Positions 29,985-52,943 of a stretch of DNA of 64,000 nucleotides are shown here, one piece after another; the first letter of the stretch is position 1, and each line of letters opens with the position of its first letter. The notes beneath the pieces were generated by a model. That model did no database searches, was not told the origin of the DNA, and saw only the letters and a list, made by a program, of their open reading frames with translations. This stretch comes from a plasmid. The position numbers were made by a program, and so were the translations under genes. Location of the stretch: the sequence record NZ_CP104305.1. One strand, 5' to 3'.

Positions 29985-30333
29985 TGTTTGTTGGCATTGC
30001 TCCATGTCCATGAATTAGATCATTTTGAATGTATTTGTCAGGACAAATTAAGTATCTTGTATCTCGATATTCAATACTTAGGTTAGAATGTTTCTTTAAA
30101 GAAGCAAGATAATGCTCATACACGCCTTTATCATGTTTGAGACAAGCAATCTCATAGCTTTTGCTCAATCTTGCTTTGAACCGCTGCATGTAGATGAAGA
30201 ATGAGTAGCAGTCTTCAAAGTGGTTATCGACCACCACAAGCCAATAACGAGTGTGAGGCGCACGGGTGAAGTAATGATCGTACTGTGACAGCATCGATTT
30301 AATGCCAAGCCTTAGTTCGGTTTCCTTATCCAT
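29977..30333 (-). CDS. hypothetical protein downstream of the Y-family polymerase
   Basis: ORF in the track is 153 aa but its first 35 codons overlap the polymerase. The internal Met (MDKETELRL...) at 30333 sits just after the polymerase stop. Confidence 0.35.
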   Translation of the reverse strand: MDKETELRLGIKSMLSQYDHYFTRAPHTRYWLVVVDNHFEDCYSFFIYMQRFKARLSKSYEIACLKHDKGVYEHYLASLKKHSNLSIEYRDTRYLICPDKYIQNDLIHGHGAMPTNTT

Positions 30334-31618
30334 GATGCCCACCAACCAATCCGGCGCGATCAATTGCGGTCGCGCCTTTTTCTTTGGAGTAGCCCCGCAC
30401 AATTGCTTTGTAGCCATATAGTTGACGAATCTTGTCAATTGTTTGATCTAACAAAACGTTTGCTTCCTCCTTCTCTGCTGATTCAAATAGACTAAGCTGC
30501 ATCGAGCTTGCTTGACTGATGCGATTAACACGAACTGAAACATTTCTGACGGCATGGCCGTTCCACTTACTATGGAAGAGATAGCGAGTGGCGCGAATCA
30601 AATCGTCAGTGCGGTTTGTGGGATCAATCTTCATTTGCGCACCGAAACCGGAGGTGCCTGCTTCTTCTGCATCAGCATAACCAATCCCAACGCTAACCAC
30701 TTCACCTTGTACTTGATGGTGACGAAGTCGGCCAGCAACCTGATCAGCAATCTCGCTAAGTACGACTTCAATCTCCCTTGCCTGCGTGTAATCACGCATG
30801 AGTACCTGACTATTGCCATAGCCTTTGTTCTCGGCTCGTGGCAAATAGCGACGAGTCAAATCCGAGTAATCAATACCCCACGAATGGAAATACAAGGCAT
30901 CGCCGAGAACGCCGAAGCGTTGATGTAATAAAAGCCGATCGGTGTGTGCAAGATCATAGAGGCTGTGAATGCCTATTGCATTAAGCTTTTTTGCGGTACG
31001 GCTGCCGATTGACCAGAAATCGGCTAAGTCATGTAGTTGCCATATGGTTTCGGGTATCCGGTCGTAAGTCCAAGTGGCTTGCCACGGAGCGGTCTTCTTG
31101 GCTTCGTTATCGAGAGCCAGCTTTGCCAGTAGAGGATTCTGACCAATGCCAACGGTTGTGATGATGCCAAACTGATCAAACACCTTCTTCTGTATTTGGG
31201 TAGCAATTTCTTGATTGGTACCGAAGAGATTGTGTGAGTGGGTGACGTCAATAAAGGATTCATCAATGGAATAGGGGTACCAATGAGCATCGTCAGTAAA
31301 CTGGCGATAAATACGATTAATCCCGTAATTCTTGCGAATGTAATCCGCCATCCGTGGTTCGGCCAGTTCAATCTTCATGTCGTCCCGCAATTGAAAGCGG
31401 CGCGTGCTCAAGCCAACATGGTAACGTTTCTTGCAGTTGGGACTCGCAGCTAACACCAGGCCGCCAGGAGAATCGCCTTTGCTAAGCACGGCAATATCAG
31501 CTGCCAACGGGTGAATGCCGCGTCGAATGGCCTCAACGGAGGCGTAAAAGGACTTGCAGTCAATACACATGATGTCGTGTACCGGTAGTCTCGTTGGATC
31601 ATCTAGTGGCGTGGTCAT
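30326..31618 (-). CDS. Y-family (UmuC/ImpB/DinB-like) translesion DNA polymerase
   Basis: N-terminal MCIDCKSFYASVE (catalytic Asp + FYAS motif), ~430 aa; the ATG at 31618 overlaps the upstream gene's TGA (ATGA). Confidence 0.8.
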   Translation of the reverse strand: MTTPLDDPTRLPVHDIMCIDCKSFYASVEAIRRGIHPLAADIAVLSKGDSPGGLVLAASPNCKKRYHVGLSTRRFQLRDDMKIELAEPRMADYIRKNYGINRIYRQFTDDAHWYPYSIDESFIDVTHSHNLFGTNQEIATQIQKKVFDQFGIITTVGIGQNPLLAKLALDNEAKKTAPWQATWTYDRIPETIWQLHDLADFWSIGSRTAKKLNAIGIHSLYDLAHTDRLLLHQRFGVLGDALYFHSWGIDYSDLTRRYLPRAENKGYGNSQVLMRDYTQAREIEVVLSEIADQVAGRLRHHQVQGEVVSVGIGYADAEEAGTSGFGAQMKIDPTNRTDDLIRATRYLFHSKWNGHAVRNVSVRVNRISQASSMQLSLFESAEKEEANVLLDQTIDKIRQLYGYKAIVRGYSKEKGATAIDRAGLVGGHHG

Positions 31619-31998
31619 GCTAACGCCCACCACCGATCAGGATTGAGCAAAGCTACGTTACGAATATCAGCTGCATTGACTGATTGGGTGTCGCCGTTCT
31701 TGAGTTGTAAATAAACCTGATCGTCCCAATGACCAATAACGGCGCCCTCAATATCTGGTAGCAACCGATCATCGTAGGGTGTGCCAATTTGAACGGCTAC
31801 AATTTTTGCATTTTGCCAGGCATCTTCAAGGATGTCGCTAATGGTTTCTTGAGACTGTTCTGGCTTTGGTTCGACAGGACGTTCAGAAATGGAGGCTTTC
31901 TCCATATAGGCAGAATGATCACTGAGAATCCAACCGAGCCATTTCTTCATGCAACGGTCAGGATAAAGCCACTTTTCTCGTGGCACGTTATTTTCCAT
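31615..31998 (-). CDS. YolD-like protein (UmuD functional analogue) translationally coupled to the Y-family polymerase
   Basis: 127 aa from the RBS-supported ATG at 31998. Pattern W...W...RP...ILEDAWQ...V.VQI....RLLPDIEGAVIGHWDDQVYLQLKNG...IRNVALL resembles the YolD family. Upstream position and ATGA coupling mirror yolD-uvrX. Confidence 0.45.
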   Translation of the reverse strand: MENNVPREKWLYPDRCMKKWLGWILSDHSAYMEKASISERPVEPKPEQSQETISDILEDAWQNAKIVAVQIGTPYDDRLLPDIEGAVIGHWDDQVYLQLKNGDTQSVNAADIRNVALLNPDRWWALA

Positions 31999-32191
31999 AA
32001 TATTAGCCTTCCTTGTTAGTTTTATAGCCATTATACAAACGCACGTTCTTAATAGCAAACATACGTTTGCATAAAAACACAGGACGTTTTATACTGAAAT
32101 TGAAAGACAACAGTAAAAAAGACATGTAGGATGACATGTCTTTTGCTGAAACCATGCTATTAATTGAATCTCATCTTGAGGAGGAAGCAGA

Positions 32192-32520: not shown

Positions 32521-32895
32521 GAAAGAGGCATAGATTACAATTATGAAGGTACTACATAAAAGGTGGCTTGCTCACTGCGTGCCTCAATTGAGACTCCTAC
32601 GGAATCGTTATAGCGTGACCGTAGGTCTGCTATAATGGTACGGTAATTACCTTCGGGGCAACGGTGAAGTTCATATCTAATAGAAATATGGGAGCGGTCT
32701 GAGGTCGCGGTGATGTGTTGAATCGTGTGGTGTGGCATAAGCTCTGTCTGAGCTCAACTAACGTTATAATAGCCATGAGGTCTTTCCTTCTTTCTAGATG
32801 GCATGTTGTTTAAACACCATTTTAGCAAGAGGGAGTTGGCCGTTCTTCACATTCCGTGGATGGTAACTTTAATTATGCAATCTAGAATTAATCTT
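32521..32895 (-). mobile_element. IS30-family remnant (internally deleted; retains one terminal IR)
   Basis: The 65-aa ORF 32541..32738 equals the N-terminus of the 306-aa IS30-family transposases at 52963 and 56819 (MxHHTIQxIxAT...ISIRxELHRCPEG), fused to a later transposase segment. 32845-32895 matches the IS end ggtaactttaattatgcaatctag. Confidence 0.6.
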
Positions 32896-32951: not shown

Positions 32952-34955
32952 ATGGATAATACAAATATATTTGAAAAAGTTGATACATCAATTAAAGAAA
33001 ATCCTAATTATAAAAAAATGATAGCGTCTTTAAAATGCTATCTGTCAGGCAAAAGTATCTCGTCATTTATCATTGATAGACCACTTTCTGGTGCACAAAA
33101 AGATTATCAGTACGAGTATAAGACGGGATTTATGATTCTTGTTCCGGGACTTAAACTTCTCTTTTCAACAATCGAAGAAATTGATACAGAAGAATTTAAG
33201 AATTTCAGGCTTGACTTTTTAGACGATATAAATTCATTGTCTGACAAATATAAACATAAAGAAATATTGGGAAGAACCAGATCCTGGCAAGCACTAACCG
33301 ATAAGATTGATATATCGAAGCTAACTAGCAAAGCAGATCCTTGGCAAAAGTATTCCCTAAATAATACTAACAAACGAAAAGCAGAGCTATTAATCACACT
33401 ACTCACTGGCTCAGTTAATGACCCGCATAATATAAAAGTTGAAGCACCCAGAGACCTTCTAGACGCTATTAAACATCGTATAACGTTGTTTGATGCTGAT
33501 CAAACACGTTTCATATACAATGATTTGAGTAAAAAGGTCTTATCAATACAAGGGCTCGCAGGAACAGGTAAAACAGAACTATTGCTACATAAGCTATATG
33601 ATATTTACGCACATCAAGACACGGCGAACACTCGAGTTGTTTTTACATGCTTTAATAAGATTTTGGCTAATGAAATGAAGAATAGAATACCTGCATTTTT
33701 TGACTTTATGAAAGTTGATGAGCAGATTCAATGGGGTAAGCGTTTGTGGGTTATGCGAAGTTGGGGATCTTTGGCAAATCCTGAAGAAGGAATATATAGT
33801 CATATTTGCTATAAATATAATCTTCCATTTAAACGCTATTCGAATGGAATTAAATTCGATGAATTGTGTACAGAAGCAATATCGATGTTAGAAAAAATTC
33901 CAAATCTAGAGCCATGCTTTGATTACACACTGATTGACGAGGGGCAAGACTTTGATGATTCATTTTTTAGGCTATGCTCGTTAGTTACTAGTAAGCAAGT
34001 AATTATTGCAAGTGATATCTTTCAAAATATCTTCGACAAGAGATCCTCGCAAACAAGCAATCCGGATTTTACACTTAACAAAGTATATCGAACCGATCCC
34101 AAGACTTTTATGTTTGCACAACTCTTTGGATTCGGTGTTGAAGAACCAGTAGGAGTAAACTGGCTAGAGGATAACACTTGGCGAACGTGCGGTTATTCTT
34201 TTGATGTAAAGGGTACAGAGTATACCTTTACAAGAGAGCCGTTGACACGTTTTGAAGATATTGGAAACTGTAATGAAACGCCGTTGATTCTTAGAGGGGC
34301 AGACGACAAAAAGTCTACAATAGAACATGTTGTATCAATTATTCAAGAAATTATTGATCAAAATCCAAGAGTTGAACCAGATGATATTGGAATAGTGTTT
34401 CTATCCGGAAGTAAACAAGACTATGAACAAATAAACAGGTTAGCGATTGAAATTAACAAAAAATACGATTGGTTATGTCAAAAAGGATATGAAACAAAAT
34501 CAAGAGAGTCAAACAGACTTTTTATAAGCAATAGGAATAATGTAAAAGGGTTGGAATTTCCATTTGTTATTTGCGTTATTAATGAAAAAATAGAACAGGA
34601 CTATATAGCTAGAGATTCAATTTATATGGCATTAACACGCTCTTTCATAACGTCATATCTTGTCTACTCACCAGATAATCAACAGCTAATGAGTCAATAT
34701 GATAATCTTTATAACCAGATTATAAAAACAGGAAAGGCCACCGTTTCAAAGCCAAAAATAACTATAAGTGAAACCGATATATCAAATCAAACAAATAAAA
34801 CACAACAACAGGTAGCAGATTCTGTTTTTAAGGATCTTCATATAACAGATAGCGCTAAAAAGGGACGACTGAGTAAGGTAATATCAGTACTAGCAGGCAA
34901 AAGCACTGATTACGCTGCGATTAGGTCAATAGTCGAAAAAAATAAAGATTTTTAA
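32952..34955 (+). CDS. UvrD-like superfamily-1 helicase with ~190-aa N-terminal extension (possible PD-(D/E)xK / NERD-like nuclease)
   Basis: Helicase motifs I GLAGTGKTELL, Ia VVFTCFNKILANEM, II LIDEGQDFDD, VI-like VKGLEFPFVICV. N-terminus has IDRP...YEYK (D...ExK). The gene is markedly AT-rich compared with its flanks. Confidence 0.6.
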   Translation: MDNTNIFEKVDTSIKENPNYKKMIASLKCYLSGKSISSFIIDRPLSGAQKDYQYEYKTGFMILVPGLKLLFSTIEEIDTEEFKNFRLDFLDDINSLSDKYKHKEILGRTRSWQALTDKIDISKLTSKADPWQKYSLNNTNKRKAELLITLLTGSVNDPHNIKVEAPRDLLDAIKHRITLFDADQTRFIYNDLSKKVLSIQGLAGTGKTELLLHKLYDIYAHQDTANTRVVFTCFNKILANEMKNRIPAFFDFMKVDEQIQWGKRLWVMRSWGSLANPEEGIYSHICYKYNLPFKRYSNGIKFDELCTEAISMLEKIPNLEPCFDYTLIDEGQDFDDSFFRLCSLVTSKQVIIASDIFQNIFDKRSSQTSNPDFTLNKVYRTDPKTFMFAQLFGFGVEEPVGVNWLEDNTWRTCGYSFDVKGTEYTFTREPLTRFEDIGNCNETPLILRGADDKKSTIEHVVSIIQEIIDQNPRVEPDDIGIVFLSGSKQDYEQINRLAIEINKKYDWLCQKGYETKSRESNRLFISNRNNVKGLEFPFVICVINEKIEQDYIARDSIYMALTRSFITSYLVYSPDNQQLMSQYDNLYNQIIKTGKATVSKPKITISETDISNQTNKTQQQVADSVFKDLHITDSAKKGRLSKVISVLAGKSTDYAAIRSIVEKNKDF

Positions 34956-34968
34956 AAAAGGAAACAAA

Positions 34969-35637
34969 ATGAAAGAAAAGAAATTATTAGAATTCATAAT
35001 GCCTTTACAGGTGGAGAATCACTTAATAATTCGATGTAAACGTGATGTCATTATTCTGTTGTTAGAAACGATTCAAAGTATTTCTCAATCAGATTTACTT
35101 AGAACTAGGAAGAACTCCTGCAAGAATAGCCGCACAAGTGGAATCATGTACATAATTAGCTCCCGAATGAAAAGATTCTTTTATTGTCGCAAAGATGGTG
35201 GAATAACATCTATTGCATTTCCTTTTAGTTTCACGGAGGATCAATATAGAATTCAATTTGTGGATTCTTTAACAAGACAAGAGATGACCCCACAACTTAC
35301 CTCAAGTTTAATTTCACTATTAAACGATTGTGTTTTTGATTTTGATCATTACAATCCAGATGATATAGAGAGTCAAGATTTAAGTGAAATAGATATTAGC
35401 AATCCCTCGTCGAAAGTTTGGGCAATCATGCAGGAGCTTATTTTATATGATGCCGGTTATTTAAGATATGACATTGATTCTGAGCAAGAGGATAAAGATA
35501 GGCACCCATTAAATCACTTGGACATTAACTTTGATAATGCTTCCACTTTCAAGCTCGGATTACACAGTGAAATCTATATTGAAGAATTACAAAATATAGT
35601 CGATAATTCCACCAATACTCGATATTTTGAGCAATGA
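34969..35637 (+). CDS. unknown 222-aa protein, downstream partner of the helicase
   Basis: Starts 14 bp after the helicase stop; same AT-rich composition; no recognisable motif. Confidence 0.45.
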   Translation: MKEKKLLEFIMPLQVENHLIIRCKRDVIILLLETIQSISQSDLLRTRKNSCKNSRTSGIMYIISSRMKRFFYCRKDGGITSIAFPFSFTEDQYRIQFVDSLTRQEMTPQLTSSLISLLNDCVFDFDHYNPDDIESQDLSEIDISNPSSKVWAIMQELILYDAGYLRYDIDSEQEDKDRHPLNHLDINFDNASTFKLGLHSEIYIEELQNIVDNSTNTRYFEQ

Positions 35638-35928
35638 TTGCAACACTTGGAGTGTACCCTATTGTTGCTACGTATAAAGTTAAGAAACGGTAGTACTCTC
35701 TAGTTTGTAGCGATTTCCTGATTAATTTGGCATCAAACATCATCAGGTTTAATCCCATGAGTAAAGATGATTTTGGATTATCAAAAAACAGCCAACTCTG
35801 ATAAGGTGGCTGTTTTTATTCATGTGACGTATTCACTAACTTAACAGTACTTGAACACACATTCAGATTGAGCAATAATGGGGTTAATCAGTATTCAAAA
35901 ACTTATACGCAGAAAGTAAGGACATTGA

Positions 35929-36606
35929 ATGACACATTTTGGTGAAAAACAATCAAATGATATTCAGGAACCGATTCGATATGGCTATGCACGCGTTTCG
36001 ACGCTCGGACAATCGCTTGATGATCAAATAGCACAACTAAAGACAGCTGGAGTTAGATCCGAGAATCTATTCGCAGAAAAATATACAGGAACAACCGTCC
36101 AACGTCCAAAGTTTGATAAGCTCATTGAACTAGCGGATCAAGGAGACGTTATCATCGTAACCAAACTAGATCGCTTAGCTCGTAATACTAAAGAGGCCTT
36201 AACTGTTTTAGATGATTTACAGGATCGTGGCATCAGTGTCGATGTTTTAAATTTAGGGCGCTTTGCAACCAATGAACAGGGTGAACTAACGGCGATTGCA
36301 AGATTAATGCGAACCATGCTACTGGCCTTCGCTGAAATGGAGCGCGATATGATTGTTGAACGCACACAAGCTGGTAAGGCATATGCTAAGAAACACAATC
36401 CGAATTTTAAAGAAGGGAGACCGCTGGCACGCATGACACCACAAAAAAGACATGCTTATGCGCTATTAAGAGGAACTTCGGGTGAGCGACGTCACACTTA
36501 TACCGAAGTAGCTAAGTTGACCGGCTATAGTAAATCCACTATTCAACGAATTGCTAAGCGTATTGAATCGGAGGAAATGTTTAAACAATGCAGCGAACAA
36601 GAATAA
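35929..36606 (+). CDS. serine recombinase (resolvase/invertase family)
   Basis: IRYGYARVSTLGQSLDDQ catalytic-Ser N-terminal motif; C-terminal HTH. Confidence 0.75.
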   Translation: MTHFGEKQSNDIQEPIRYGYARVSTLGQSLDDQIAQLKTAGVRSENLFAEKYTGTTVQRPKFDKLIELADQGDVIIVTKLDRLARNTKEALTVLDDLQDRGISVDVLNLGRFATNEQGELTAIARLMRTMLLAFAEMERDMIVERTQAGKAYAKKHNPNFKEGRPLARMTPQKRHAYALLRGTSGERRHTYTEVAKLTGYSKSTIQRIAKRIESEEMFKQCSEQE

Positions 36607-36794: not shown

Positions 36795-39700
36795 TTATCT
36801 TAAAGAGGAGAAAAACGCAAGTAAGCCATCTTCGAAGTCTGCGGTTTCAAAGAATCCTAAGTTCTGATCCTTTTCAATTTGTGTGATTTTATTTTTCAAC
36901 TTAGGGTTATCATTTAAGCCAACTCCTGGCAAATATAGATCATAGGCTTCGACAATCGCATTACCATTAGATCCGTGGTCAGCTGACCAACGACGTAACT
37001 TTAGTTCTTTGCGTTCAGTTCGGATGGTCTTACGTGCATGTTGCAGCGAATCCGTGTTGAAATGTGTTTTATAGTCGCCATTCTCGATTCCATCGAGAAT
37101 GTCCTCAATTTCATGTCGACTCTCGTCATCCATTGGGGTAATGTGTTCTACAACATTATCCCGGTTTTCCCGCGTCTTTTCGTCCATATAGGCATTAATT
37201 AATGCTACTAACATGTCATAATCAATGATTTCATGACTATACATATCAATGGCAATTTTGATGTTCGTCAGGTCAATCTTCTTTTCTGGCGGTAAAAGCT
37301 CATTGACATCGTTCAGACGGGCTTGCAGGGCACTGAATTCATCATTGTCCTTAATGTTTAACTTGGCCTTATCGCCAGTTACCTTGCCGTCCGCGTCTAG
37401 CACATCAACTTCTGAACCAAGTGCATAACCTTGCTGAACTAATCGTTGAACTTGTTGATTGACCTCCGATGCTAAAACCGCGAACTCCAATTGTAGCTTT
37501 TCAGAACGAGGCGTTTGACTGAAGTCTTCACCGGCAATTTCCTTAAGATGCTCAATCTTTGGTTGCAATTCATCAATTTGTGTCGACATTCTTGGTGCCA
37601 GAATATCGTCGTTAAAAAGGTTCTGTTGATCATCCTTCACCGACTTCTTTTTCGCGTCGGCAAGCGTATCATTACCACCTTTAGTATAAATGATCAAAGC
37701 TTCCTTGACATTTTCCTCCATAACGTCGCCTTTGCGGAAAAAGCGCACCTTGCCATACGGCTTAGCATTTTTGTCAATCGTTCGATTGGTACGCGACATT
37801 GCTTGAATCAGCATGCCCTCCTTAAGCAGTTTGTCGATATAGATGATATTCAGGTACTTAGAATCGAATCCCGTGAGCAGCTGATCTGACACAATGACCA
37901 AGTCAAGTCGCTGAGGATGAGCAGTTTCCTCAGCAACGGTCAATTTTTGATTGTAAGGCTTTTTGTGGGCTAAACGTTTCGTGATATCAGTTAGGTAAGT
38001 CCGTTCTGGATCCTTGTCGTCTAAGAAATTACGGGTCTGATAGCGCGTTGCATAATCTGTCATCGCCTGCTTCAAGGCAGCTTGCAAATCAGACGTCCCT
38101 TCTCCGTTATCCTCATCACGTGAATAAGTCATGGCTACGCGAAGGTCGGGAGCCAATTCTTTGAACAGGTTATAGTATGCAACGACAGCCTGCTTTCCGG
38201 AGACAGCAAACAAGCCATGAAATTGATTTGGCTGACGAACACCCCCCTGAATTGGCCCAGAATGGTTCTCTTGCCAATGAGCAAGGATGTCCTCGACCAC
38301 AGCCTTCCGGAATGGATACGAGGTATACACCTGCTTTTCTAATTCCGGCTCAGTCAGGTCAGCATTCGCTGATGCCTCAATTTCCGGCGTGTAATACGTC
38401 ACATCAAAACCAAGAACGTTACCATCGCCGATAGCATCTTTAATGGTATAGCGGTGGAGCCGCTTACCGAAGATATCATAGGTTGAGATATTCCTTGATG
38501 TCTTCACTTCATTAACTTCATCGCTATAAAAATTAGGTGTACCAGTAAAACCAAACCATGTTGTCTTTGGAAACGCCTTTTTAATCCTAGCGACAGCATC
38601 ACCACTAGCTGACCGATGAGCTTCATCCATTAAAATGACATTGCGATCATTGCATAATAACCCTGACTTAACGGCCTTATCTAAGCCCTGCACCGTAATC
38701 AAGTAGATAAATGATGGGTCACTTTTCTGCTTGAGTACTTGTTTCAGATTATGTCCATTTACAATTTGAATTCGGTCTTCAAAGGTTTTGTAGGCATAGG
38801 ACTTAAAATCGTCATACGTTTGTTTTACTAAATCAACGCGATCCACAATGAACAGAACGTTACGAACTTTTGGCATCGATGCGAGTAGTTGTGCAACCTT
38901 GAATGAAGTGACGGTCTTGCCTGATCCCGTTGTGTGCCAGATATAGCCGCCTTCTTTTTCAATATAGTTGTTTGCTTCCATCGTTCGCATGCGATCCATA
39001 ATTGCCCGTGTTGCCTGAATTTGATACGACCGCATGACCATCAGATTATCATTAGCTGCATCCGGAATCATGTTAACCGTCACTAAACGGTGTAAAGCCG
39101 GAATCCCCATCACTTGATGAATGAACGCCATGGTGGCTGTTACATCCTTACCATTGTCATCACGCCAACCAAACACGAAATCCTTATTGTATGATTGAGC
39201 GTTTTTTGGACGGGCAAAATAATGAGCAGAGTGCTGAGATAGTACAAATTGAACCTGAACAAATGAAAACAGACCGGTATACATGCCGTCATCGTCATAC
39301 TTTTGGAGTTGTTCAAACGCATTCCATTGGTTCTGCAGCGATTCATCCTTCTCTTCGATATGGACAACGGGCAATCCGTTAATCAAGAGCATGATATCAA
39401 TACGTCGTTTTTCACTCAATGTAAATGGCAGCTCACTAAATGTAACTTGGTTGACAATCTCGTAACGAGAATGACCACCGGCCACCTCATCACCATAGAA
39501 AATTTCTATCTCCAATTTTGTTCCATCGTCACGGGTCAAAGGCACTGTTCCAATGCCACCTGACCCCGCCAACATCAGCTGTGCATCGTAGGGTGTCTTA
39601 TTCTTGTTAAGTTCAAGTTTGATACTCTCGAACTCGTTGTCAGAAAGTGGTGTGCCGTCGAGCTTGCGTGCGTTGTTCTGGTTCAGAATATCACGCCAAT

Positions 39701-39806
39701 GGTGATACAGAGCCTTAGTGGTTACACCAGATAAATCATCGCGGTATGTCCAACCTTCCGATTTAAGTTTCTCAATTACCGCTTTTTCAAACTTGTCTTC
39801 CGCCAT
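36795..39806 (-). CDS. hsdR: type I restriction enzyme R subunit
   Basis: 1003 aa; DEAD-box helicase motifs (HTTGSGKT, DEAH-like ILMDEAHRS); operon with hsdS and hsdM. Confidence 0.85.
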   Translation of the reverse strand: MAEDKFEKAVIEKLKSEGWTYRDDLSGVTTKALYHHWRDILNQNNARKLDGTPLSDNEFESIKLELNKNKTPYDAQLMLAGSGGIGTVPLTRDDGTKLEIEIFYGDEVAGGHSRYEIVNQVTFSELPFTLSEKRRIDIMLLINGLPVVHIEEKDESLQNQWNAFEQLQKYDDDGMYTGLFSFVQVQFVLSQHSAHYFARPKNAQSYNKDFVFGWRDDNGKDVTATMAFIHQVMGIPALHRLVTVNMIPDAANDNLMVMRSYQIQATRAIMDRMRTMEANNYIEKEGGYIWHTTGSGKTVTSFKVAQLLASMPKVRNVLFIVDRVDLVKQTYDDFKSYAYKTFEDRIQIVNGHNLKQVLKQKSDPSFIYLITVQGLDKAVKSGLLCNDRNVILMDEAHRSASGDAVARIKKAFPKTTWFGFTGTPNFYSDEVNEVKTSRNISTYDIFGKRLHRYTIKDAIGDGNVLGFDVTYYTPEIEASANADLTEPELEKQVYTSYPFRKAVVEDILAHWQENHSGPIQGGVRQPNQFHGLFAVSGKQAVVAYYNLFKELAPDLRVAMTYSRDEDNGEGTSDLQAALKQAMTDYATRYQTRNFLDDKDPERTYLTDITKRLAHKKPYNQKLTVAEETAHPQRLDLVIVSDQLLTGFDSKYLNIIYIDKLLKEGMLIQAMSRTNRTIDKNAKPYGKVRFFRKGDVMEENVKEALIIYTKGGNDTLADAKKKSVKDDQQNLFNDDILAPRMSTQIDELQPKIEHLKEIAGEDFSQTPRSEKLQLEFAVLASEVNQQVQRLVQQGYALGSEVDVLDADGKVTGDKAKLNIKDNDEFSALQARLNDVNELLPPEKKIDLTNIKIAIDMYSHEIIDYDMLVALINAYMDEKTRENRDNVVEHITPMDDESRHEIEDILDGIENGDYKTHFNTDSLQHARKTIRTERKELKLRRWSADHGSNGNAIVEAYDLYLPGVGLNDNPKLKNKITQIEKDQNLGFFETADFEDGLLAFFSSLR

Positions 39807-39863
39807 CTACCCATCTCCTCCGAAACTGTGCAACTGCGATATTGTCGTCAATCAAGATCCGAA

Positions 39864-41096
39864 CTATACAAACATCTTTTGGAGCAGTGCCTTCTTCAAG
39901 TTTTTGAGAACCTCACCTTTACGTTTAGTTGCAGCGATAAGGTTTTCCAAGGTAATAATGAACTGAGCAACTGCAACTTGTTCGTGCACGGTTGGAATAG
40001 AAACCACTAAATCTCTTACCAACTCTGAATTAATATTGATTTGAGATCCTGGTTGTCCAAATCTAGCCCAATTAGGTCGATATTTCTCTAGGAAATAAAA
40101 CATAAAGTCCAAATCAAATTTTGGATCCATAAATACAATAAAACCGTCGTGTACACCGACCTGAATGTAGTTCTGGACTGGTTTCCCGACAGTTGCGGCA
40201 ATGCTCAATAACAGGTGCTTGGATTTTAAAACCAAAGTCTTTTTCTGACCAGCATCGGATAAGTATTGCTCAACTTGGTGTATTCTGCCGTTTTGTTCTG
40301 TAACATCTGATATTCTTATCCATCCTACCTGAGATGTTTGACTAAACCACTTTTTGTTTTTTATCGGTCTGGGGCTTGCACCTCGTCGAATATTTGCAAG
40401 CTCTCCCAACTTACGCTTTTCCCAAGCGTCAGTGAACCCCTTGAACCGAATATCGGGGATCGGACTTGTTTCAGATGCGAATAATCGTTGCAACAGGCCC
40501 TTCTTCAAGTTTTGAAGAACATCACCTTTACGCTGGTTGACTGCGATGAGGGAATCGAGGCGGGAGAAGAAGGCGCCGATCTTGGTTTGCTCGATAACCT
40601 CCTCAGGGATACCAAGCTCATACTTTGCAAGGTCAGATGGCGTAATACGCTTCTGACTATTTGAAGTTCCTGAGGACATCGCCTCCATATCCCGCGTCAC
40701 CTTATCAGACAACATAATTTGCTCAAGAAGTCCTAGAGCAACCTTATCAGAGGTAAAGGGTACGAATTCACTCGATGTAACTGCATTATCTTCAACTTCT
40801 CGAAGCCACCAAATTCTGCGCTGTCGAACGTTTAACTTGTTAATGAGCAGAACATTCCCTGATATTTTTAGGCGAAGACTCTGCATCATCTTTCCCAAAA
40901 CGACTTGCGGAGTTCTTCCATTATCGAACGCTGGCATACTGTATTCAGCAAATTTTTCAGCGGGTGTATCTTGCGGATTAATACTGTCTCGAACAAAGTT
41001 GCCAAGTTCCCCCAGCTTCCGCTTTTCCCAAGCGTCCGTGAATCCCTTAAACCGAATAGCCGGTTGAGTTCTTTGGTGGTCCCGAACATTACTCAT
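39864..41096 (-). CDS. hsdS: type I RM specificity subunit (two target-recognition domains)
   Basis: 410 aa with duplicated conserved segments (IRFKGFTDAWEKRKLGEL twice; LLQ(R/K)(L/M)F C-terminal repeats); overlaps hsdM. Confidence 0.8.
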   Translation of the reverse strand: MSNVRDHQRTQPAIRFKGFTDAWEKRKLGELGNFVRDSINPQDTPAEKFAEYSMPAFDNGRTPQVVLGKMMQSLRLKISGNVLLINKLNVRQRRIWWLREVEDNAVTSSEFVPFTSDKVALGLLEQIMLSDKVTRDMEAMSSGTSNSQKRITPSDLAKYELGIPEEVIEQTKIGAFFSRLDSLIAVNQRKGDVLQNLKKGLLQRLFASETSPIPDIRFKGFTDAWEKRKLGELANIRRGASPRPIKNKKWFSQTSQVGWIRISDVTEQNGRIHQVEQYLSDAGQKKTLVLKSKHLLLSIAATVGKPVQNYIQVGVHDGFIVFMDPKFDLDFMFYFLEKYRPNWARFGQPGSQININSELVRDLVVSIPTVHEQVAVAQFIITLENLIAATKRKGEVLKNLKKALLQKMFV

Positions 41097-42678
41097 GATC
41101 CAGAACCTCCCTTAACTCATCCAATATCTGCTGATCCTCTTGATGAGTCACCACTAAATCGCTCATCATTTCTTTCAGGTCAGTTGTAAGTCGATTTTCT
41201 TCTTTAGACAGAGCCTTCATACTACTTAATAGCTCCGCAGAATCGACTGGCTCCTCTTCTTCAAAGGTATCAACATAGCGTGGAATATTGAGGTTATAAT
41301 CATTTTCTCGGATTTCGTCCATTGTCGCGACATGTGCGTACTTATCAATATCGTGATGTGCTAGATAGGCTTCAACAATTTTGTTAATGTCTTCTTCTCT
41401 TAATTTATTGCTGTTTTTCTGCCTCTCGTACCCCTTTGAGGCGTCAATAAACAGCACATCATCAGTTGCGCGGTTCTTCTCAAGAACCATGATGATGGTT
41501 GGAATACCTGTATTCGTGAAGATCTTTTCGGGCAGGCCAATAATGGCCACAATGTGGCGATTTTCCAAAAGCTCCTTGCGAATACGTTCCTCGGCAGCCC
41601 CACGGAACAGAACGCCATGTGGCAAAACAATTGCCATCCGACCGTCTGATTTTAAATGGTACAAACTGTGCAATAGGAATGCATAGTCAGCTTTAGACTT
41701 TGGGGCAACTCCAAATCTGAAGCGTGGATCATCTTCTCGATTCGTATTATCCCACTTTTGTGAATAGGGTGGATTTGCCATGACTGCATCAAACATACGA
41801 GGGTTATCAATACCTTCAACAACACCATCAGGCCAATCACCATTCAACGTATCAGCATTACGAAGGTTGATGTCATTATACTCAACGCCATGCATCATCA
41901 GGTTCATACGCGCAAGATTGTAAGTCGTCGTAATCAGTTCTTGTCCATAATACTTAATGGCTCCACGAACGCCAGCATTTTTCATATGAGATGCTGTTGT
42001 CAGAAGCAATGAACCAGATCCCATTGTCGGATCGTACAGATTATATTCTTCAAGGTTTTCACGCCCAGCAGTTAAAATACGAGCCATAACGTCTGATACT
42101 TGGTGTGGTGTATAGAACTCTCCGGCCTTAGCACCAGAATTAGCGGCAAACATACTAATCAAGTATTCGTATAGATCACCTAAGATGTCAGCCTCTTCAC
42201 CTAGCTCCATCTTATCCATGAGGTTAATCCAAGCCATTAATGTTGCCGTACGGGTCTGTGCATTGGCACCTAGCCGTGATGAGGTGAGATCCATATCGGT
42301 AAAGATTCCGGCAAAGTTGTCTTTGGCATCTGGGCTCACACCTTGATCGAAATGAACTAAAGCATCAGAAACCATCATAATATTGAACTTGTCTTCATTA
42401 ATTGCGGTCTTCCAATCCGAGAACATGTCGCCTGGTTGAATCACATAGCCAAGGGTTCGTTGCATAAAGCCCGCCGATTTCTCAGGATTTTGTTTCCAAA
42501 CATCGGCCCATGTTTCGCCACGTAACACCTGATTAAGCCAGTGTTGGGCCTTTTCAGATAAGAACTTGTAGAACATGACTCCAAAGATGTAGTTTTTGTA
42601 TTCTGACGGTTCAATCTTTCCCCGAGTCTCGTTTAATGTCTTCCAGATTAAAGCCTCTTTGTCGGCTGTCAATGCCAT
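41089..42678 (-). CDS. hsdM: type I RM N6-adenine DNA methyltransferase subunit
   Basis: 529 aa; N-terminal HsdM-N region; catalytic NPPY (MANPPYSQKW); AdoMet motif DPTMGSGSLL. Confidence 0.85.
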   Translation of the reverse strand: MALTADKEALIWKTLNETRGKIEPSEYKNYIFGVMFYKFLSEKAQHWLNQVLRGETWADVWKQNPEKSAGFMQRTLGYVIQPGDMFSDWKTAINEDKFNIMMVSDALVHFDQGVSPDAKDNFAGIFTDMDLTSSRLGANAQTRTATLMAWINLMDKMELGEEADILGDLYEYLISMFAANSGAKAGEFYTPHQVSDVMARILTAGRENLEEYNLYDPTMGSGSLLLTTASHMKNAGVRGAIKYYGQELITTTYNLARMNLMMHGVEYNDINLRNADTLNGDWPDGVVEGIDNPRMFDAVMANPPYSQKWDNTNREDDPRFRFGVAPKSKADYAFLLHSLYHLKSDGRMAIVLPHGVLFRGAAEERIRKELLENRHIVAIIGLPEKIFTNTGIPTIIMVLEKNRATDDVLFIDASKGYERQKNSNKLREEDINKIVEAYLAHHDIDKYAHVATMDEIRENDYNLNIPRYVDTFEEEEPVDSAELLSSMKALSKEENRLTTDLKEMMSDLVVTHQEDQQILDELREVLDHE

Positions 42679-43545: not shown

Positions 43546-44088
43546 ATGAAAAAAGCTTTGGTAGGATTTGGAATTATATTAGGAGTCAGTACTCTGACGG
43601 CATGTACCTCAAAAAATGGGGAGAGCGTAACAAGCCGATCAGATGCATCTACTCAGCAAAAAGAAAGTGCATCAACAGTAAAAGCGGAACCATCCACATC
43701 CTCAGAAGAATCTAGTGCTACATCACAGTCCTCAGAAAGTAGCGAAGAGAAGAAGTTACAATACGTAATCGTTTCAAGAAAAAGCGAAAAAAAGAACTTC
43801 ATTCATGGATCAGTTGAACTACATGGAGGGGACGGAACTAAAGTAGACGTTAAAGTCGATGATAACGATATTAAGGCCGGTTCTTATCAAGCAACATGGA
43901 CGCCAGGTGCTATAGGAGGATCAAGCAAAGACTACGGTTATGGCATTATTTATATAAATGGTGATCAGAACTCAATTCAAGTGAAGCCAGACAAGCCAAC
44001 TGATGTTACATTTAAAGATGGTGATACTATTACTTTCCAATTTGCTGGTAATGGAGACAACGATAAGCTTACTTTGGATCAAAAGTAG
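43546..44088 (+). CDS. lipoprotein, unknown function
   Basis: Signal peptide with lipobox LTAC; Ser/Glu-rich linker, then a small beta-rich domain. Confidence 0.5.
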   Translation: MKKALVGFGIILGVSTLTACTSKNGESVTSRSDASTQQKESASTVKAEPSTSSEESSATSQSSESSEEKKLQYVIVSRKSEKKNFIHGSVELHGGDGTKVDVKVDDNDIKAGSYQATWTPGAIGGSSKDYGYGIIYINGDQNSIQVKPDKPTDVTFKDGDTITFQFAGNGDNDKLTLDQK

Positions 44089-44204
44089 ACCCTGGAGATC
44101 TCATCTTTTGTTATGGTTTGGATGTACTGAGAATATTCTTGCCAATGCCTCTTTCTGGACAAAATAGCTGGACTGAGGATCAACTTGGGAAGCATCCTCA
44201 TTGT

Positions 44205-44230
44205 TTTACAATAGGGTGTACCCTATTGTA
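44205..44230. promoter_or_regulatory. palindromic candidate res/crossover site upstream of the resolvase
   Basis: ttacaataggg tgta ccctattgtaa (11-bp perfect arms). The right half-site tgtaccctattgt recurs at 35656-35668, upstream of the other resolvase. Confidence 0.4.
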
Positions 44231-44289
44231 ACTAAAGAGAGAAGGGAGTATTATTAGTTACATATAAGTGACCCGGAGGCGACCTATAA

Positions 44290-44940
44290 TTGGCTAAAAT
44301 CGGTTATGCGCGTGTTAGTACGCGTGATCAAAATCTTGCACGTCAAATTGAACAGCTACATGATGCCGGTGTTAATAAAATCTTTCAAGAGAAGCTTTCA
44401 GGAAAAAATGCCGATCGTCCTCAACTGAAAGCAATGTTAGACTATATTCGTGATGATGATGAAGTAGTGGTACTGAGCCTTGACCGACTTGGTCGCAATT
44501 CTCATGATTTGACTGACATCATCGAAACCATTCGGCATCGTGGAGCTCAATTGAATGTTCTAAATCTGCCTAGCTTTGCAAGTATTGAAGATCCTAACCT
44601 TCGTAACTTGATTACGACAATTATTGTCGAACTATATAAGTATATTGCTCAAGAAGAGCGCGAAACTATTAAGATACGGCAACAACAAGGCATAGAAATT
44701 GCCAAACGCCAGGGCAAATATAAGGGCAAAATTCGCGAATATGGTCCTCATTCACCTAATCGTCAAAAACGCTATATTTATAAAGAAGCCTGTCGCCTTT
44801 TAAATAGGAAGAAAGACGGAGATGAAACTCTGACCAAGCGACAAATTGCTCGCATGTTAGGTATTGCACCAGTAACCTTATATCGCATCGAAAAGTATCA
44901 GGCAGAAGATCTAGCAAACTTTCCCCCTAGTGAGAGGTAA
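44290..44940 (+). CDS. serine recombinase (resolvase family)
   Basis: MAKIGYARVSTRDQNLARQ N-terminus with catalytic Ser; 216 aa; C-terminal HTH. Confidence 0.75.
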   Translation: MAKIGYARVSTRDQNLARQIEQLHDAGVNKIFQEKLSGKNADRPQLKAMLDYIRDDDEVVVLSLDRLGRNSHDLTDIIETIRHRGAQLNVLNLPSFASIEDPNLRNLITTIIVELYKYIAQEERETIKIRQQQGIEIAKRQGKYKGKIREYGPHSPNRQKRYIYKEACRLLNRKKDGDETLTKRQIARMLGIAPVTLYRIEKYQAEDLANFPPSER

Positions 44941-44945
44941 ACATC

Positions 44946-45230
44946 ATGATAGATTTAAGGGGCAAACGAATTCTCTTTACCGGCCGTTTGCGATCTTTTC
45001 GTCGTTTCCAGGCACAACAGTTAGCAACTATTCTAGGAGCAAAACCTGTCAACGGGATTGACAAAAATGTCGATATCCTTGTGGTTGGTATTATTAGCAA
45101 ACCCTATGATCAACTACTTACCACTCAAAAGTTAACGTATGCTAGAACCTATGGCATTCCAAAGATTGACGAATTAGCCTTTATTTCATGGTGCCAATGG
45201 CGATTAGATCAATTGAAAACAACTCTTTAA
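44946..45230 (+). CDS. small BRCT-domain-like protein
   Basis: GKRILFTGRL...FRR..AQQLATILGAKPVNGIDKNVDILVVG matches the BRCT pattern of NAD-ligase-type C-terminal domains. Confidence 0.4.
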   Translation: MIDLRGKRILFTGRLRSFRRFQAQQLATILGAKPVNGIDKNVDILVVGIISKPYDQLLTTQKLTYARTYGIPKIDELAFISWCQWRLDQLKTTL

Positions 45231-45259
45231 GTACCTTCTTATCAAACGGGGAGATTAGT

Positions 45260-45592
45260 ATGCAAAAGCGTATCGATTTGGCCAATCAAACGTTTGGACG
45301 ACTCACAGTCATTAGTTTTTTTGGAAGCAGTTCTAATGGAAACGCGCTTTGGCTCTGTCAATGTCAATGTGGAAATAAATGTATCGTTGACAGTCAACGA
45401 CTTCAAAAAGGACTCACTCGCAGTTGTGGGTGTTTGCGATCAGAAATAAGCAGATCAAACATAAAAGCTAATAACCAGACTAAAAAATACATGGGCAATC
45501 CCAAGAATTTTCAACTAATTAATCGAACAAATTTAGTTGCTTCTACACTTAAACGGTCCAATAACAAATTCGGCATGATAGGTATTAGTTAG
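45260..45592 (+). CDS. zinc-ribbon (CxC...CGC) protein of phage/plasmid type
   Basis: FGRLTVI...WLCQCQCGNKCIV...SCGCL four-Cys motif; the ATG at 45260 has RBS gggaga. Confidence 0.4.
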   Translation: MQKRIDLANQTFGRLTVISFFGSSSNGNALWLCQCQCGNKCIVDSQRLQKGLTRSCGCLRSEISRSNIKANNQTKKYMGNPKNFQLINRTNLVASTLKRSNNKFGMIGIS

Positions 45593-45651
45593 GCTAAAAC
45601 GACTCAAAATTAGGTAGCACGACTTCACTTTCAAAGCCATCTTAATAAACC

Positions 45652-45909
45652 GTGTATATGTTCATGCGGAGGGTGCAATCGCTGCTCCAAAGACAGCAAA
45701 AAAGGATATCATTCCTTTGCAAGAGCAATATAATCAATCACACCAACAAAATTGAACAAATTGATCAGACAATCCGAGTAGGCGCAAATCCCATTGCTTA
45801 TACTGCCGATGAACCTATAGAAAAGGCGCTTCGTCATAAAATGGTTCAGTACTGTAATCCTCCAAATGGCATAAATATTAAGACTAGTTTTCAAGAAAGG
45901 AAGCCGTAA
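45652..45909 (+). CDS. hypothetical protein
   Basis: 85-aa ORF. Confidence 0.25.
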   Translation: MYMFMRRVQSLLQRQQKRISFLCKSNIINHTNKIEQIDQTIRVGANPIAYTADEPIEKALRHKMVQYCNPPNGINIKTSFQERKP

Positions 45910-45910
45910 C

Positions 45911-46282
45911 GTGCGTTTATGGCATCAAGATTTAATTCAGCAACTCCCAAGACAACAATTATTGGGACAGCATCGTGAAATTGCGGCGCTTCGCGGTAAT
46001 GGATGGGGACGGAAACACGCTACCGTTAATTACGTATTTGCACATTCCCCATATAAATTATTTCAATTTCACTGTATTGTGTTACGTGAAATGGAAAAAC
46101 GAGGTTATCATCCAGATCAGAAATGGTATGATCCTCTGTATCGAGGTCAACATTGCCCAGCATACAAACAACTCAATCCGGTTGCACTCACAATACCCAT
46201 CTATCCTGAGCATGACCAACGATATAAACATGTTTGCTTAACCAATTTACAAAACAAGGGAATCTTTTTAAACCTTCCGTGA
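45911..46282 (+). CDS. pyrimidine-dimer DNA glycosylase-like (T4 DenV/endonuclease V family) protein
   Basis: N-terminal MRLWHQDLIQQLPRQQLLGQHREIAAL resembles the DenV N-terminal helix (L..L.DQHLMAEYRELP); size ~120 aa. Confidence 0.4.
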   Translation: MRLWHQDLIQQLPRQQLLGQHREIAALRGNGWGRKHATVNYVFAHSPYKLFQFHCIVLREMEKRGYHPDQKWYDPLYRGQHCPAYKQLNPVALTIPIYPEHDQRYKHVCLTNLQNKGIFLNLP

Positions 46283-46394
46283 TCCTAGTCTGCGATGTTC
46301 ATCTTGGGACATAGGATTGACAAAATAGTATCTCAACAATATATTTACTAAAAGTAAATAAATAGCCAGTATTACGTTGATAGGAGAAAATCAA

Positions 46395-46793
46395 ATGGTA
46401 AACCTTACAGAAGAAATGAAAAATATGTTAAAGAATCAGCTCCCCTTTCTAGCAACAACAGGAAAAGATGGCAAACCTCAAGTTGGTCCCAAGGGTTCAC
46501 TACATGTCTTAGATGACTCACATTTAATCTACTTTGAGCACACCTTTAGGCAGGCCTATAATAATCTCTCGAACAACCATTTGGCGGCGGTTGCGGTTGC
46601 TGATAGAGGCGCTCAAAAGGGATTTCGCTTTGAGGGAACGGCTCATATTCATGAAGCAGATGACTTTGCTAATCAGATTCTAGATAAAACTAACATCTTT
46701 GATCGTTTCCCACGCGCTGGCGTGGTGGTCATTGATGTTGAACGAATCTATAAATTGGATAATACCTTAGAAGCTGGTATTCAAATCGCCTAG
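46395..46793 (+). CDS. pyridoxamine-5'-phosphate-oxidase-like (split-barrel flavin-binding) family protein
   Basis: LPFLATTGKDGKPQVGPKGSL pattern typical of PNPOx-like/general stress protein 26 family; RBS aggaga. Confidence 0.45.
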   Translation: MVNLTEEMKNMLKNQLPFLATTGKDGKPQVGPKGSLHVLDDSHLIYFEHTFRQAYNNLSNNHLAAVAVADRGAQKGFRFEGTAHIHEADDFANQILDKTNIFDRFPRAGVVVIDVERIYKLDNTLEAGIQIA

Positions 46794-47266
46794 GGTTTTT
46801 AAAACAAATTCAACCGAGTAAGTCGAAGAACTTTTTAGTGTCCAAACTCATACAGTGTTTATTTCATGTCATTAAGTATTCATTAGCAAGCAGTTTTGTT
46901 ATACTTTGGTTAGAAGTGATAGAAGTACGTCTAATTCTTAAGAAACCCGTAGCTTACTGTTAACGCCATTACTTCGAGCGTGTCGATTTTCGATACGCCT
47001 TTTTTTGTGTTATTGGATAAAAATCATCCAATAAAAATGAAATATCAAAAAAGACGACTTCTACTATGGAAAGTCGTCTCTGATGAACCCGTTTTTCTAA
47101 TACTCATTCATGTTGCATCGTCTTGCTTCAAATGCTTGAAATATACAGACATAGTGTTTAAATAAGTTGGCCGGTTTCAGTTTATTAAACTCAATATCAG
47201 TCTTAAAATATTGATTCTTTCCTAATTTAAAGTAACCCAAAAAGATATTAGACAAATTTTGAGATC

Positions 47267-48346: not shown

Positions 48347-48419
48347 TCTGATTACCTCGCCATATCAAAACAAGAGCGCCATCGACGCTCTTGCTTGACT
48401 CATTTATCTTATTAACTTT

Positions 48420-49424: not shown

Positions 49425-49426
49425 TC

Positions 49427-50152
49427 TTATCTCTCCCACTTATTAATTTTTTGGTTTTTTATGTTAAAAGCAAGTACTGTCCCGAAGATTATCAACCCGA
49501 GCATTGAAAGCCAAGCTGCAACTGTATCACCCGTTTGTGGCAACAATTGACGTGTTTTCTTTGGAACTTTTTTGGGGGCATCGGTGTGACGACTTACCAT
49601 TTTGTTCTTAGGAAATAAATCAATGCGTGATTGATTCCCATGTTGAAGGTTGCTTGACATGACAACCACAAGATTCTGACTGGCTTCAATATTCTTAGGT
49701 GCCGCCGTTTCTTTAAAAAGATAAACCGCAGCATGCTGCCCCTGTCGGAGTGGTAAATCGCCAAAGTACGCTTCTCCCTGACCAGCCGTCACAACCTGTG
49801 CGATAAGGCTGGAGCTAGCAGGCTGATAGCTATCTTGACTCAACGTCGTTTGTGCTGCTTCAATCGCACCGCCATTTTTGGAGACAAGCTGCCAAAAGTC
49901 AGCGGTCACGTCATAAACTGTGAACGTCACACCGTTTAACGGCACATCTGCCTGCGAAAAGTCGGGTTTTGTTGTCCCGTTATTTGCTTGTTGAGTTGGC
50001 AAGGTATCTTTAAACAACAGCTTATGCAACACAACATCAACAGTGGTCGGCACAGTTGCCGCCTGTGTCTGCTGCAACGTTGTCGTTGCCAAACTGACTA
50101 GTAGTGCCAAGCAAAAGGTCAAAATCACTAACGGACGGAAGGATTTAGTCAT
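49427..50152 (-). CDS. minor/basal pilin with LPXTG-type sorting signal
   Basis: 241 aa, signal peptide, LPQTGD + TM + KNQK tail; overlaps both neighbours. Confidence 0.6.
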   Translation of the reverse strand: MTKSFRPLVILTFCLALLVSLATTTLQQTQAATVPTTVDVVLHKLLFKDTLPTQQANNGTTKPDFSQADVPLNGVTFTVYDVTADFWQLVSKNGGAIEAAQTTLSQDSYQPASSSLIAQVVTAGQGEAYFGDLPLRQGQHAAVYLFKETAAPKNIEASQNLVVVMSSNLQHGNQSRIDLFPKNKMVSRHTDAPKKVPKKTRQLLPQTGDTVAAWLSMLGLIIFGTVLAFNIKNQKINKWER

Positions 50153-52904: not shown

Positions 52905-52943
52905 ATTTTTACCCTCCTCTCAAGTAAACTTTTAACCAATGAC

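Follow-up and report, generated by a model that had tools for sequence, protein, structure and literature searches.

The 64,000-nucleotide (nt) stretch of plasmid DNA analysed here (sequence record NZ_CP104305.1; hereafter the window) encodes two tightly linked genes, one for a superfamily 1 (SF1) helicase of 667 amino acids (aa) and one for a 222-aa partner protein, which together we refer to as the cassette (Table 1). An earlier sequence-only reading had described the two linked open reading frames (ORFs), judged them by eye to be AT-rich, and proposed an uncharacterised or divergent phage-defence or plasmid-interference system. Both ORFs are as described, and the impression of AT-richness was borne out by calculation: guanine-cytosine (GC) content was 0.336 in the cassette versus 0.441 in the window, with third-position GC (GC3) values of 0.27 and 0.31, and the cassette was the lowest-GC 2686-bp stretch in the window (values as low occurred in 0.3% of sliding windows). 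An inverted repeat (93% complementary) located 147 nt past the partner stop codon looks like a terminator closing a two-gene operon, which is a structural observation only. A consensus scan called no terminators, this repeat included, and a consensus promoter scan found promoter-like sites to be no commoner than in shuffled sequence. Running antisense across the 3' end of the partner gene is a 69-aa ORF (35549-35758, minus strand); some metagenomic contigs (loci L029-L031) carry it as a predicted gene, but it is probably spurious.

Table 1. Positions of the cassette, its parts and flanking features in the window, and of regulator-like ORFs upstream of related pairs in gut Clostridia (L numbers denote comparison loci).
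Feature	Position	Strand	Remarks
Helicase gene, 667 aa	32952-34955	+	ORF
Helicase N-terminal domain, aa 1-176	32952..33479	+	Alpha/beta
Helicase core, aa 177-580	33480..34691	+	Q-motif-like LFDxDQTRFIY, YRTD, NVKGLEFPFV, ALTRS; motifs invariant in 24-sequence alignment
Walker A, GLAGTGKT	33552-33575	+
DEGQD motif	33936-33950	+
Intergenic spacer, 13 nt, with ribosome-binding site (aaaaaAGGAaacaaa, AGGA)	34956..34968	+	Sequence read; operon junction
Partner gene, 222 aa	34969-35637	+	ORF
Partner conserved core, aa 164-198	35458..35562	+	Y164-x-R166-x-D168-x-D170...H179-P180-x-x-H183-x-D185...K195-x-G197
14-bp inverted repeat, 6-nt loop, adjoining A- and T-runs	35784..35817
IS30-family remnant (about the first 25 transposase codons and upstream end)	32702..32885	-	Left boundary of the AT-rich cassette
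Serine resolvase	35929-36606		Downstream of the pair
Complete type I restriction-modification system (HsdR/S/M)	36795-42678		Downstream of the resolvase
HTH_3 ORFs in Clostridia loci	L001 587-886; L003 6942-7223; L006 9673-9990; L009 9679-9951; L015 9658-9981

The helicase matched the NCBIfam model NF053713 (STM2767 family DEAD/DEAH box helicase) almost end to end, with residues 15-666 of 667 aligned to model positions 11-663 of 665 (744.8 bits, E = 8.8e-224, cutoff 550). Pfam matches to UvrD-helicase (8e-12), Viral_helicase1, UvrD_C_2 and AAA_19 fell within residues 186-571, and positions G204/G206/K207/T208, D329-E330-x-Q332-D333, Y379-R380, K532-G533-L534-E535 and T562-R563 were invariant in an alignment of 24 family members. 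Given that the Walker A, DExQD, YRT, KGLEF and TRS motifs are all invariant, the protein is probably, judging from these intact motifs, an active SF1 ATPase/translocase. The SF1/UvrD assignment made in the sequence-only reading was thus confirmed, with one correction: VKGLEFPFV, taken there as motif-VI-like, corresponds to UvrD-family motif V, motif VI being the ALTRS segment after it. In PHROGs, the two halves of the helicase matched different families (phrog_16361 for residues 37-317, phrog_13375 for residues 322-578; the partner matched phrog_13184), which suggests that prophage-derived copies in that collection are split or truncated.

A nuclease assignment for the N-terminal domain was not upheld. 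The sequence-only reading had pointed to a D...EYK arrangement as a PD-(D/E)xK or NERD-like feature, and D51 and E55-Y56-K57 do occur in this helicase, but across the 24 relatives position 51 is lysine in 14, position 55 is Ser, Asp or Glu, and position 57 varies. Pfam detected no NERD or nuclease family in the domain, and a NERD/PD-(D/E)xK fusion of the Nhi type (PADLOC C3a187, 'NERD+UvrD') was rejected on both counts; PADLOC (version 2.0.0) likewise gave no grounds for Nhi membership. The domain weakly resembles restriction-endonuclease and Schlafen folds, without conserved nuclease catalytic residues, and we infer for it a role in DNA binding or partner docking. Housekeeping PcrA, UvrD, Rep or RecD identity, with the conserved chromosomal synteny expected of such genes, was also rejected: equivalog scores were 23.7 bits for pcrA (cutoff 911), 21 for rep (cutoff 951) and 13 for uvrD (cutoff 1144), the nearest PDB sequence was PcrA at only E = 2.5e-4, occurrence is sporadic, and synteny differed in every genome examined.

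The partner protein, described earlier as lacking any recognisable motif and as the novel member of the pair, proved to belong to a named family. It matched NF053714 (STM2766 family helicase-associated protein) at 147.5 bits (E = 4.1e-43, cutoff 70), residues 20-220 aligning to model positions 18-206 of 207, and the columns of its conserved core, together with R69, were invariant or nearly so in a 91-sequence alignment. With a RefSeq name and a remote relationship to DUF2290 (below), it is not an orphan. Its AlphaFold model (predicted local distance difference test, pLDDT, 87.5; predicted template-modelling score, pTM, 0.86) comprises an N-terminal helix, a five-strand beta-meander, helices and three consecutive strands (164-169, 182-187 and 193-198). 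In this model, the three strands bear Y164, R166, D168, D170, H183, D185 and K195, with H179-P180 in a preceding loop, and the resulting conserved Arg/Asp/His/Lys face is predicted to form a catalytic or ligand-binding site. A Foldseek comparison of the model with the PDB returned nothing significant and PDB sequence profiles contained no relative, leaving the fold without a solved structural relative by either comparison.

The association between the two proteins is strict. A partner homologue, on the same strand as the helicase and 3' of it, was present in each of the 35 loci fetched (29 distinct, all 29 with the partner directly following an STM2767-type helicase), separated by -17 to +17 nt; the two genes were adjacent throughout and are probably translationally coupled. 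The helicase family comprises more than 2,100 homologous clusters, and among the best 120 listed all but a few are full length (~667 aa). At 50% identity, 742 representatives make up the partner family; the best 150 listed are 165-244 aa long, that is, standalone proteins. Among the matches listed, the nearest relatives of the window pair are 50-54% identical; identity of the helicase to the Salmonella STM2767-type protein is 40% over 546 aa (E = 3e-134), and that of the partner to its Salmonella prototype is 24% (E = 1e-8). The prototype pair was taken from a Salmonella IncHI2 plasmid with a captured hin-fljB-fljA-IS3-helicase-hypothetical segment.

The family spans Firmicutes and Proteobacteria, including Salmonella Typhimurium LT2 and the ends of Escherichia coli prophages, and it turns up only sporadically: among 5,426 complete E. 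coli genomes, 37 carried the pair, always in single copy. Recent RefSeq annotation of E. coli genomes uses the STM2767/STM2766 family names. Our literature search located no functional paper on either protein, STM2767 featuring only as a landmark in fljAB-deletion studies, and neither accession nor model ID searches turned up anything on the family. The pair is catalogued by NCBI, functionally uncharacterised, and distinct from the Helicase + DUF2290 system as currently defined. On Clostridium perfringens plasmid p9 (L041 4940-5604), the partner is split into 51-aa and 163-170-aa ORFs, both of which match the family hidden Markov model (HMM); this is probably a frameshifted pseudogene beside an intact helicase.

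We then considered how the pair relates to Helicase + DUF2290, the experimentally validated anti-phage system of Rousset et al. 2022, named 'Helicase-DUF2290' in PADLOC and 'Rst_HelicaseDUF2290' in DefenseFinder and represented in Pseudomonas aeruginosa by PA1372/PA1371. The PADLOC check suggested by the sequence-only reading gave a partial match for the helicase and none for the partner. The best helicase match was to PDLC03002 ('Helicase'; 82 bits, E = 6.8e-24), confined to residues 170-363, which aligned with positions 181-373 of the 707-position model. Eight plasmids with annotated DUF2290 genes served as controls: the helicases next to those genes matched PDLC03002 end to end at 559-1227 bits, identifying it as the helicase model of the Helicase-DUF2290 system. 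The control partners scored 67-221 bits on PF10053 (threshold 25 bits) and passed the PADLOC DUF2290 models PDLC02998/02999. Genuine DUF2290 partners also scored 147-320 bits on a DUF2290 HMM that we built from 30 sequences, and nothing on the STM2766-family HMM; the window partner gave no match to this 30-sequence HMM. Our HMMs for the two partner families kept them cleanly apart. The homologue on Lactococcus lactis plasmid pUL021B likewise failed PDLC03002 and the DUF2290 models. Since true members satisfy PADLOC and Pfam models that the window pair does not, detection tools (here PADLOC 2.0.0 only) would probably miss it.

Profile-profile comparison (hhalign) nevertheless recovered a distant relationship. 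The two helicase lineages aligned with 100% probability (E = 4.8e-41) over 553 columns, residues 20-604 against 18-662 with the N-terminal domain included, at an identity of ~20% over the hhalign columns (~23-28% by tblastn). For the partner, the alignment to DUF2290 reached 89.9% (E = 1.7e-6) over 47 columns covering the core motif; a larger profile of DUF2290 gave 85.5% (E = 5.7e-6), with 106 columns aligned. Weak PF10053 matches were present in 24 of 91 partner-family members, and matches to a PADLOC DUF2290 model in 21 of 91. Both partner lineages carry the signature IR[YF]DxD...HPxxH...[KR], which takes the form PIRFDFD...HPxSHLTLG...CRIP in DUF2290. With considerable confidence we assign the window pair to STM2767/STM2766 and relate that family remotely to Helicase + DUF2290, of which it is probably a discrete, distant sister lineage. 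As far as we found, this link has not been made in the literature, and PADLOC 2.0.0 does not cover it. Scans of viral contigs returned no DUF2290 relatives.

The window represents nearly all of a conjugative Lacticaseibacillus paracasei plasmid, and CP195899.1 (66,623 bp) holds an identical gene string. Many plasmids of L. paracasei and L. rhamnosus share its conjugation and pilus regions at 94-98% identity. Window positions 1-23438 and 44200-57850 hold a conjugation module of VirB4/VirD4 type with genes for a relaxase and a CHAP-domain protein, 98.3% identical to plasmid pLPCN-3, and a SpaA-type pilus/sortase C cluster that is ~98% identical to those of L. rhamnosus and L. paracasei plasmids. 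Upstream of the cassette lie genes for a RepA_N initiator, ParA and, ~1.3 kb away, a Y-family (ImpB/UmuC) polymerase. The polymerase gene (30326-31633, minus strand) is preceded by a 127-147-aa ORF (31615-32058, minus strand) with no Pfam domain, which sister plasmids label 'DNA-directed RNA polymerase subunit beta', a name implausible at such a size.

Both flanks named in the sequence-only reading were found (Table 1): on the right, the resolvase and type I restriction-modification (RM) block, and on the left, an insertion sequence (IS) remnant that matches annotated IS30 transposase genes of L. paracasei plasmids, in their 5' end and the region upstream of it, at 82% identity. Sister plasmid NZ_CP014988.1 has an intact IS30 at exactly the same backbone position. 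Similarity to the near-isogenic pLPCN-3 ends at window position ~32,500, and the cassette was absent from all PLSDB plasmids, despite 97-98% identity in the shared backbone. At the equivalent site, pLPCN-3 carries a pair of genes for SIR2 and ATP-binding proteins and a large helicase-related cluster. That pair (L047, NZ_CP050503.1 46533-56336) is SIR2-HerA-like, adjoins genes for a 1146-aa helicase-related and a >1100-aa hypothetical protein, and is possibly alternative defence cargo. The idea of a defence hotspot raised by this cargo was rejected in its general form, the IS-bounded cargo of three other sister plasmids at this point consisting of phosphotransferase system (PTS), bacteriocin-export or pilin genes.

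The IS30 element at the site, the break in backbone similarity and the differing IS-bounded cargo of sister plasmids show that the cassette was acquired separately into a general IS-bounded cargo zone rather than a defence-specific hotspot. The proposal of separate acquisition in the sequence-only reading accordingly holds, and so does its placement beside RM and resolvase genes; the genes in the wider surroundings (RepA_N, ParA and conjugation genes) are those of a conjugative plasmid, whose accessory region houses the cassette, and not of a chromosomal defence island. On balance, the cassette is probably a two-gene operon that reached this conjugative plasmid by horizontal transfer and is carried there as cargo. 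We found no flanking direct repeats or target-site duplications around it. Close to the position at which the match to other plasmids picks up again, beyond the type I RM genes, lie a 180-aa Ser/Glu-rich lipoprotein-like ORF (43546-44088) and a second resolvase-family gene (44290-44940), two features that may delimit the acquired region on its right.

Elsewhere, the family occurs sporadically on mobile elements, often beside RM, SIR2, Abi or toxin genes. The closest relative of the window pair has a SIR2 + DUF87/HerA-like pair directly upstream, and in Bacillus cereus a giant SIR2_2 protein is encoded near the pair. In Halobacillus, two type II RM systems and Vsr lie nearby; in Salinicoccus, an SLFN-type helicase + MazG-like pair, a STAND-like NTPase and a PDDEXK protein; and in Clostridium felsineum, transposases, a P4-cII-like gene and a RES toxin. 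The Niallia pair is flanked on both sides by IS21 elements, and in E. coli a prophage inserted at ssrA carries the pair at its end, where it follows the tail-fibre assembly gene and neighbours AbiTii. On pUL021B, the cassette homologue is accompanied by a helicase + DNA methyltransferase gene pair that we read as type III RM-like. The main text of the lactococcal plasmidome study does not name this plasmid. The SLFN-g3-type helicase + MazG-like pair recurred within 10 kb of STM2767/STM2766 in two of these genomes (L036 2460-4395 in Salinicoccus, L037 19084-21026 in Halobacillus) and may be another small defence-type module.

Two further features of the neighbourhoods are set out here as observations. 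A serine recombinase adjoins the pair on three unrelated Firmicutes plasmids, namely the window plasmid (35929-36606), p9 (L041 5960-6535) and pUL021B (L020 4027-4614, there accompanied by a BRCT-domain gene); the pair could move with a resolvase module, or this could be a coincidence with plasmid multimer-resolution genes. In gut Clostridia, a PADLOC and Pfam scan of 109 neighbours across 15 loci revealed no dominant defence family besides a helix-turn-helix (HTH) regulator: an Xre-type HTH_3 ORF of 90-107 aa lay directly upstream on the same strand in 5 of the 15 loci (Table 1), with 40-45% identity between loci. These proteins resemble RM control proteins and CapH in PADLOC, and HTH genes also precede some genuine Helicase + DUF2290 pairs (L019, L023 and L026). 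A conserved third gene was considered and rejected, since the 104-aa ORF upstream of the window pair is unrelated to HTH_3 and part of the plasmid backbone, leaving no counterpart in the window.

Taking together the sister relationship with Helicase + DUF2290, the strict linkage of the two genes (29 of 29 distinct loci) and their sporadic carriage on mobile elements, we favour the interpretation that the pair is a module for defence or for conflict between mobile elements, which supports the candidate function put forward in the sequence-only reading. The sister system has been reported to protect E. coli specifically against T7 (PMC9122126), and its deletion in P. aeruginosa MPAO1 increases susceptibility in a phage-specific manner (bioRxiv 10.64898/2026.09.16.752016). 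In strain PAO1, plasmid pNUK73 drives rep expression to a high level, induces SOS and imposes a fitness cost, all of which depend on the helicase PA1372 with its partner PA1371 (PMC4410645, PMC11637435). For the window pair, the SF1 helicase would be motor and sensor in one, powered by ATP and loading onto ends, nicks or replication intermediates in foreign DNA that is entering or replicating, while its N-terminal domain, of weakly nuclease-like fold, would serve as the DNA-binding or docking module. As effector, the partner would keep the invader from replicating, most plausibly as a metal-dependent nucleic-acid hydrolase or otherwise as an allosteric switch. The result would be impaired phage or plasmid replication, accompanied by DNA-damage signalling as a side effect. 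This particular division of labour between helicase, N-terminal domain and partner is speculative and rather less likely than not. We give somewhat less than even weight to the broader proposal that STM2767/STM2766 is an independent, functional anti-phage or anti-plasmid system probably missed by current detection tools (PADLOC 2.0.0 being the one used here), with a partner representing a new effector type (Arg-Asp-Asp-His-His-Asp-Lys site) that occurs in divergent form in DUF2290.

A number of results weigh against a defence role or against parts of this proposal. No reported phenotype was found for any STM2767/STM2766 member, and cultured phage genomes yielded no homologue of the helicase. 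The neighbours of the pair in the 15 gut-Clostridia loci were heterogeneous and largely metabolic, and the plasmid site itself, as noted above, is not specific to defence cargo. The window partner had no match at E <= 1 in Pfam or PADLOC, DUF2290 models included, and its homology to DUF2290 (85-90% probability) covers the C-terminal half only, the N-terminal halves being unaligned. It matches no known nuclease or hydrolase fold, for which reason an effector role is something we can only infer. For the sister system, a lactococcal DUF2290/Helicase homologue gave no protection from the lactococcal phages tested (PMC11381338), and the Helicase + DUF2290 mechanism is itself unexplored.

Among other explanations, a Hachiman-like abortive infection survives best, but we consider it unlikely. 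Here the partner would be a toxic protein held by the helicase and released or activated on damaged or foreign DNA or by a phage protein, whereupon it would damage host and invader nucleic acid alike and the cell would die or arrest. The obligate linkage of a helicase with a small partner is consistent with this, as is the restraint of the HamA nuclease by HamB described in PMC12278908; the PAO1 sister system is tied to SOS induction and host fitness cost under a plasmid, and AbiTii and RES toxin genes are neighbours in two loci. However, PADLOC matched neither protein to HamA or HamB, the gene order is reversed relative to Hachiman, and the partner has no recognisable nuclease or toxin fold.

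A non-defence function, as an accessory replication, recombination or maintenance module for mobile elements (for example a helicase that aids plasmid or prophage replication, or resolution with the serine recombinase), appears less probable still. It would account for the position of the pair directly after the replication initiation gene on the 11.8-kb plasmid p9, for the adjacent recombinase on the window plasmid, p9 and pUL021B, for the raised plasmid rep expression caused by the PAO1 sister helicase, and for a cargo site that is not defence-specific. Yet most occurrences are chromosomal or at prophage ends and lack a neighbouring rep gene, RepA_N and ParA are encoded by the window plasmid itself and near-isogenic plasmids replicate without the cassette, p9 persists although its partner gene is frameshift-split, and the sister family has a demonstrated anti-phage phenotype. 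Finally, the upstream ImpB/UmuC gene and the UvrD-like motifs suggested a helicase for DNA repair or damage tolerance that cooperates with the Y-family polymerase cassette, or else a PcrA/UvrD paralogue of housekeeping type. This reading is highly improbable, given that the polymerase is conserved plasmid backbone present in sister plasmids without the cassette and unlinked to the pair in any other locus, and given the equivalog scores, the remote PcrA match and the sporadic distribution presented above.

If the pair is active in defence or mobile-element conflict, as we favour, it would add a widespread clade, unannotated by current tools, to Helicase + DUF2290-type immunity. Should the reading of the partner prove true, solving one partner would explain both the STM2766 and the DUF2290 systems, because the effector enzyme would be common, in divergent form, to both. 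A helicase with a small partner in defence is unsurprising as a general idea; the motif common to both partner lineages defines residues for mutagenesis, and the family lends itself unusually well to testing, E. coli prophages and S. Typhimurium LT2 (STM2766/STM2767) both holding prototype copies. A plasmid-borne system beside a type I RM block could matter for phage robustness in dairy and probiotic L. paracasei, and by analogy with PA1372 and pNUK73 it may influence plasmid compatibility and fitness costs. If the pair is inactive, the nuclease-helicase reading has still been shown to rest on a non-conserved motif.

Gabija, Nhi and NERD-helicases, named in the sequence-only reading, are not the closest relatives of the pair: PADLOC GajB models matched only short segments of the helicase (E = 2e-4 to 5e-3) and returned no GajA-like match for the partner. 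Gabija was rejected, as GajA (an OLD-family ATPase/TOPRIM nuclease) is lacking and the flanking genes are the IS30 remnant and resolvase; it likewise has a UvrD-like SF1 helicase in a small defence-type operon, but the partner is unrelated. GajB senses DNA termini (PMC10952713), which offers a plausible analogy for how the window helicase might sense its target. Hachiman membership was also rejected, Pfam finding no DUF1837 in addition to the PADLOC result. HamB belongs to a different family, within the SF1/SF2 defence helicases according to the literature, its gene order is opposite, and the partner gave no PD-(D/E)xK fold match; Hachiman likewise pairs a helicase sensor with a small effector, a possible mechanistic analogy. 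With the NCBIfam STM2767/STM2766 pair, the window genes agree in full-length equivalog scores, gene order and tight linkage, and they differ from the prototype beside fljBA-hin in S. Typhimurium in being of low-GC Firmicutes and plasmid-borne rather than chromosomal. Helicase + DUF2290 loci differ in that their members pass the membership models that the window pair fails, and the two families are discrete. Like STM2767/STM2766, however, they are found on plasmids and mobile elements, sometimes inside other defence loci (BREX), and like the window pair they consist of a helicase followed by an abutting or overlapping partner of ~220 aa (eight genuine loci).

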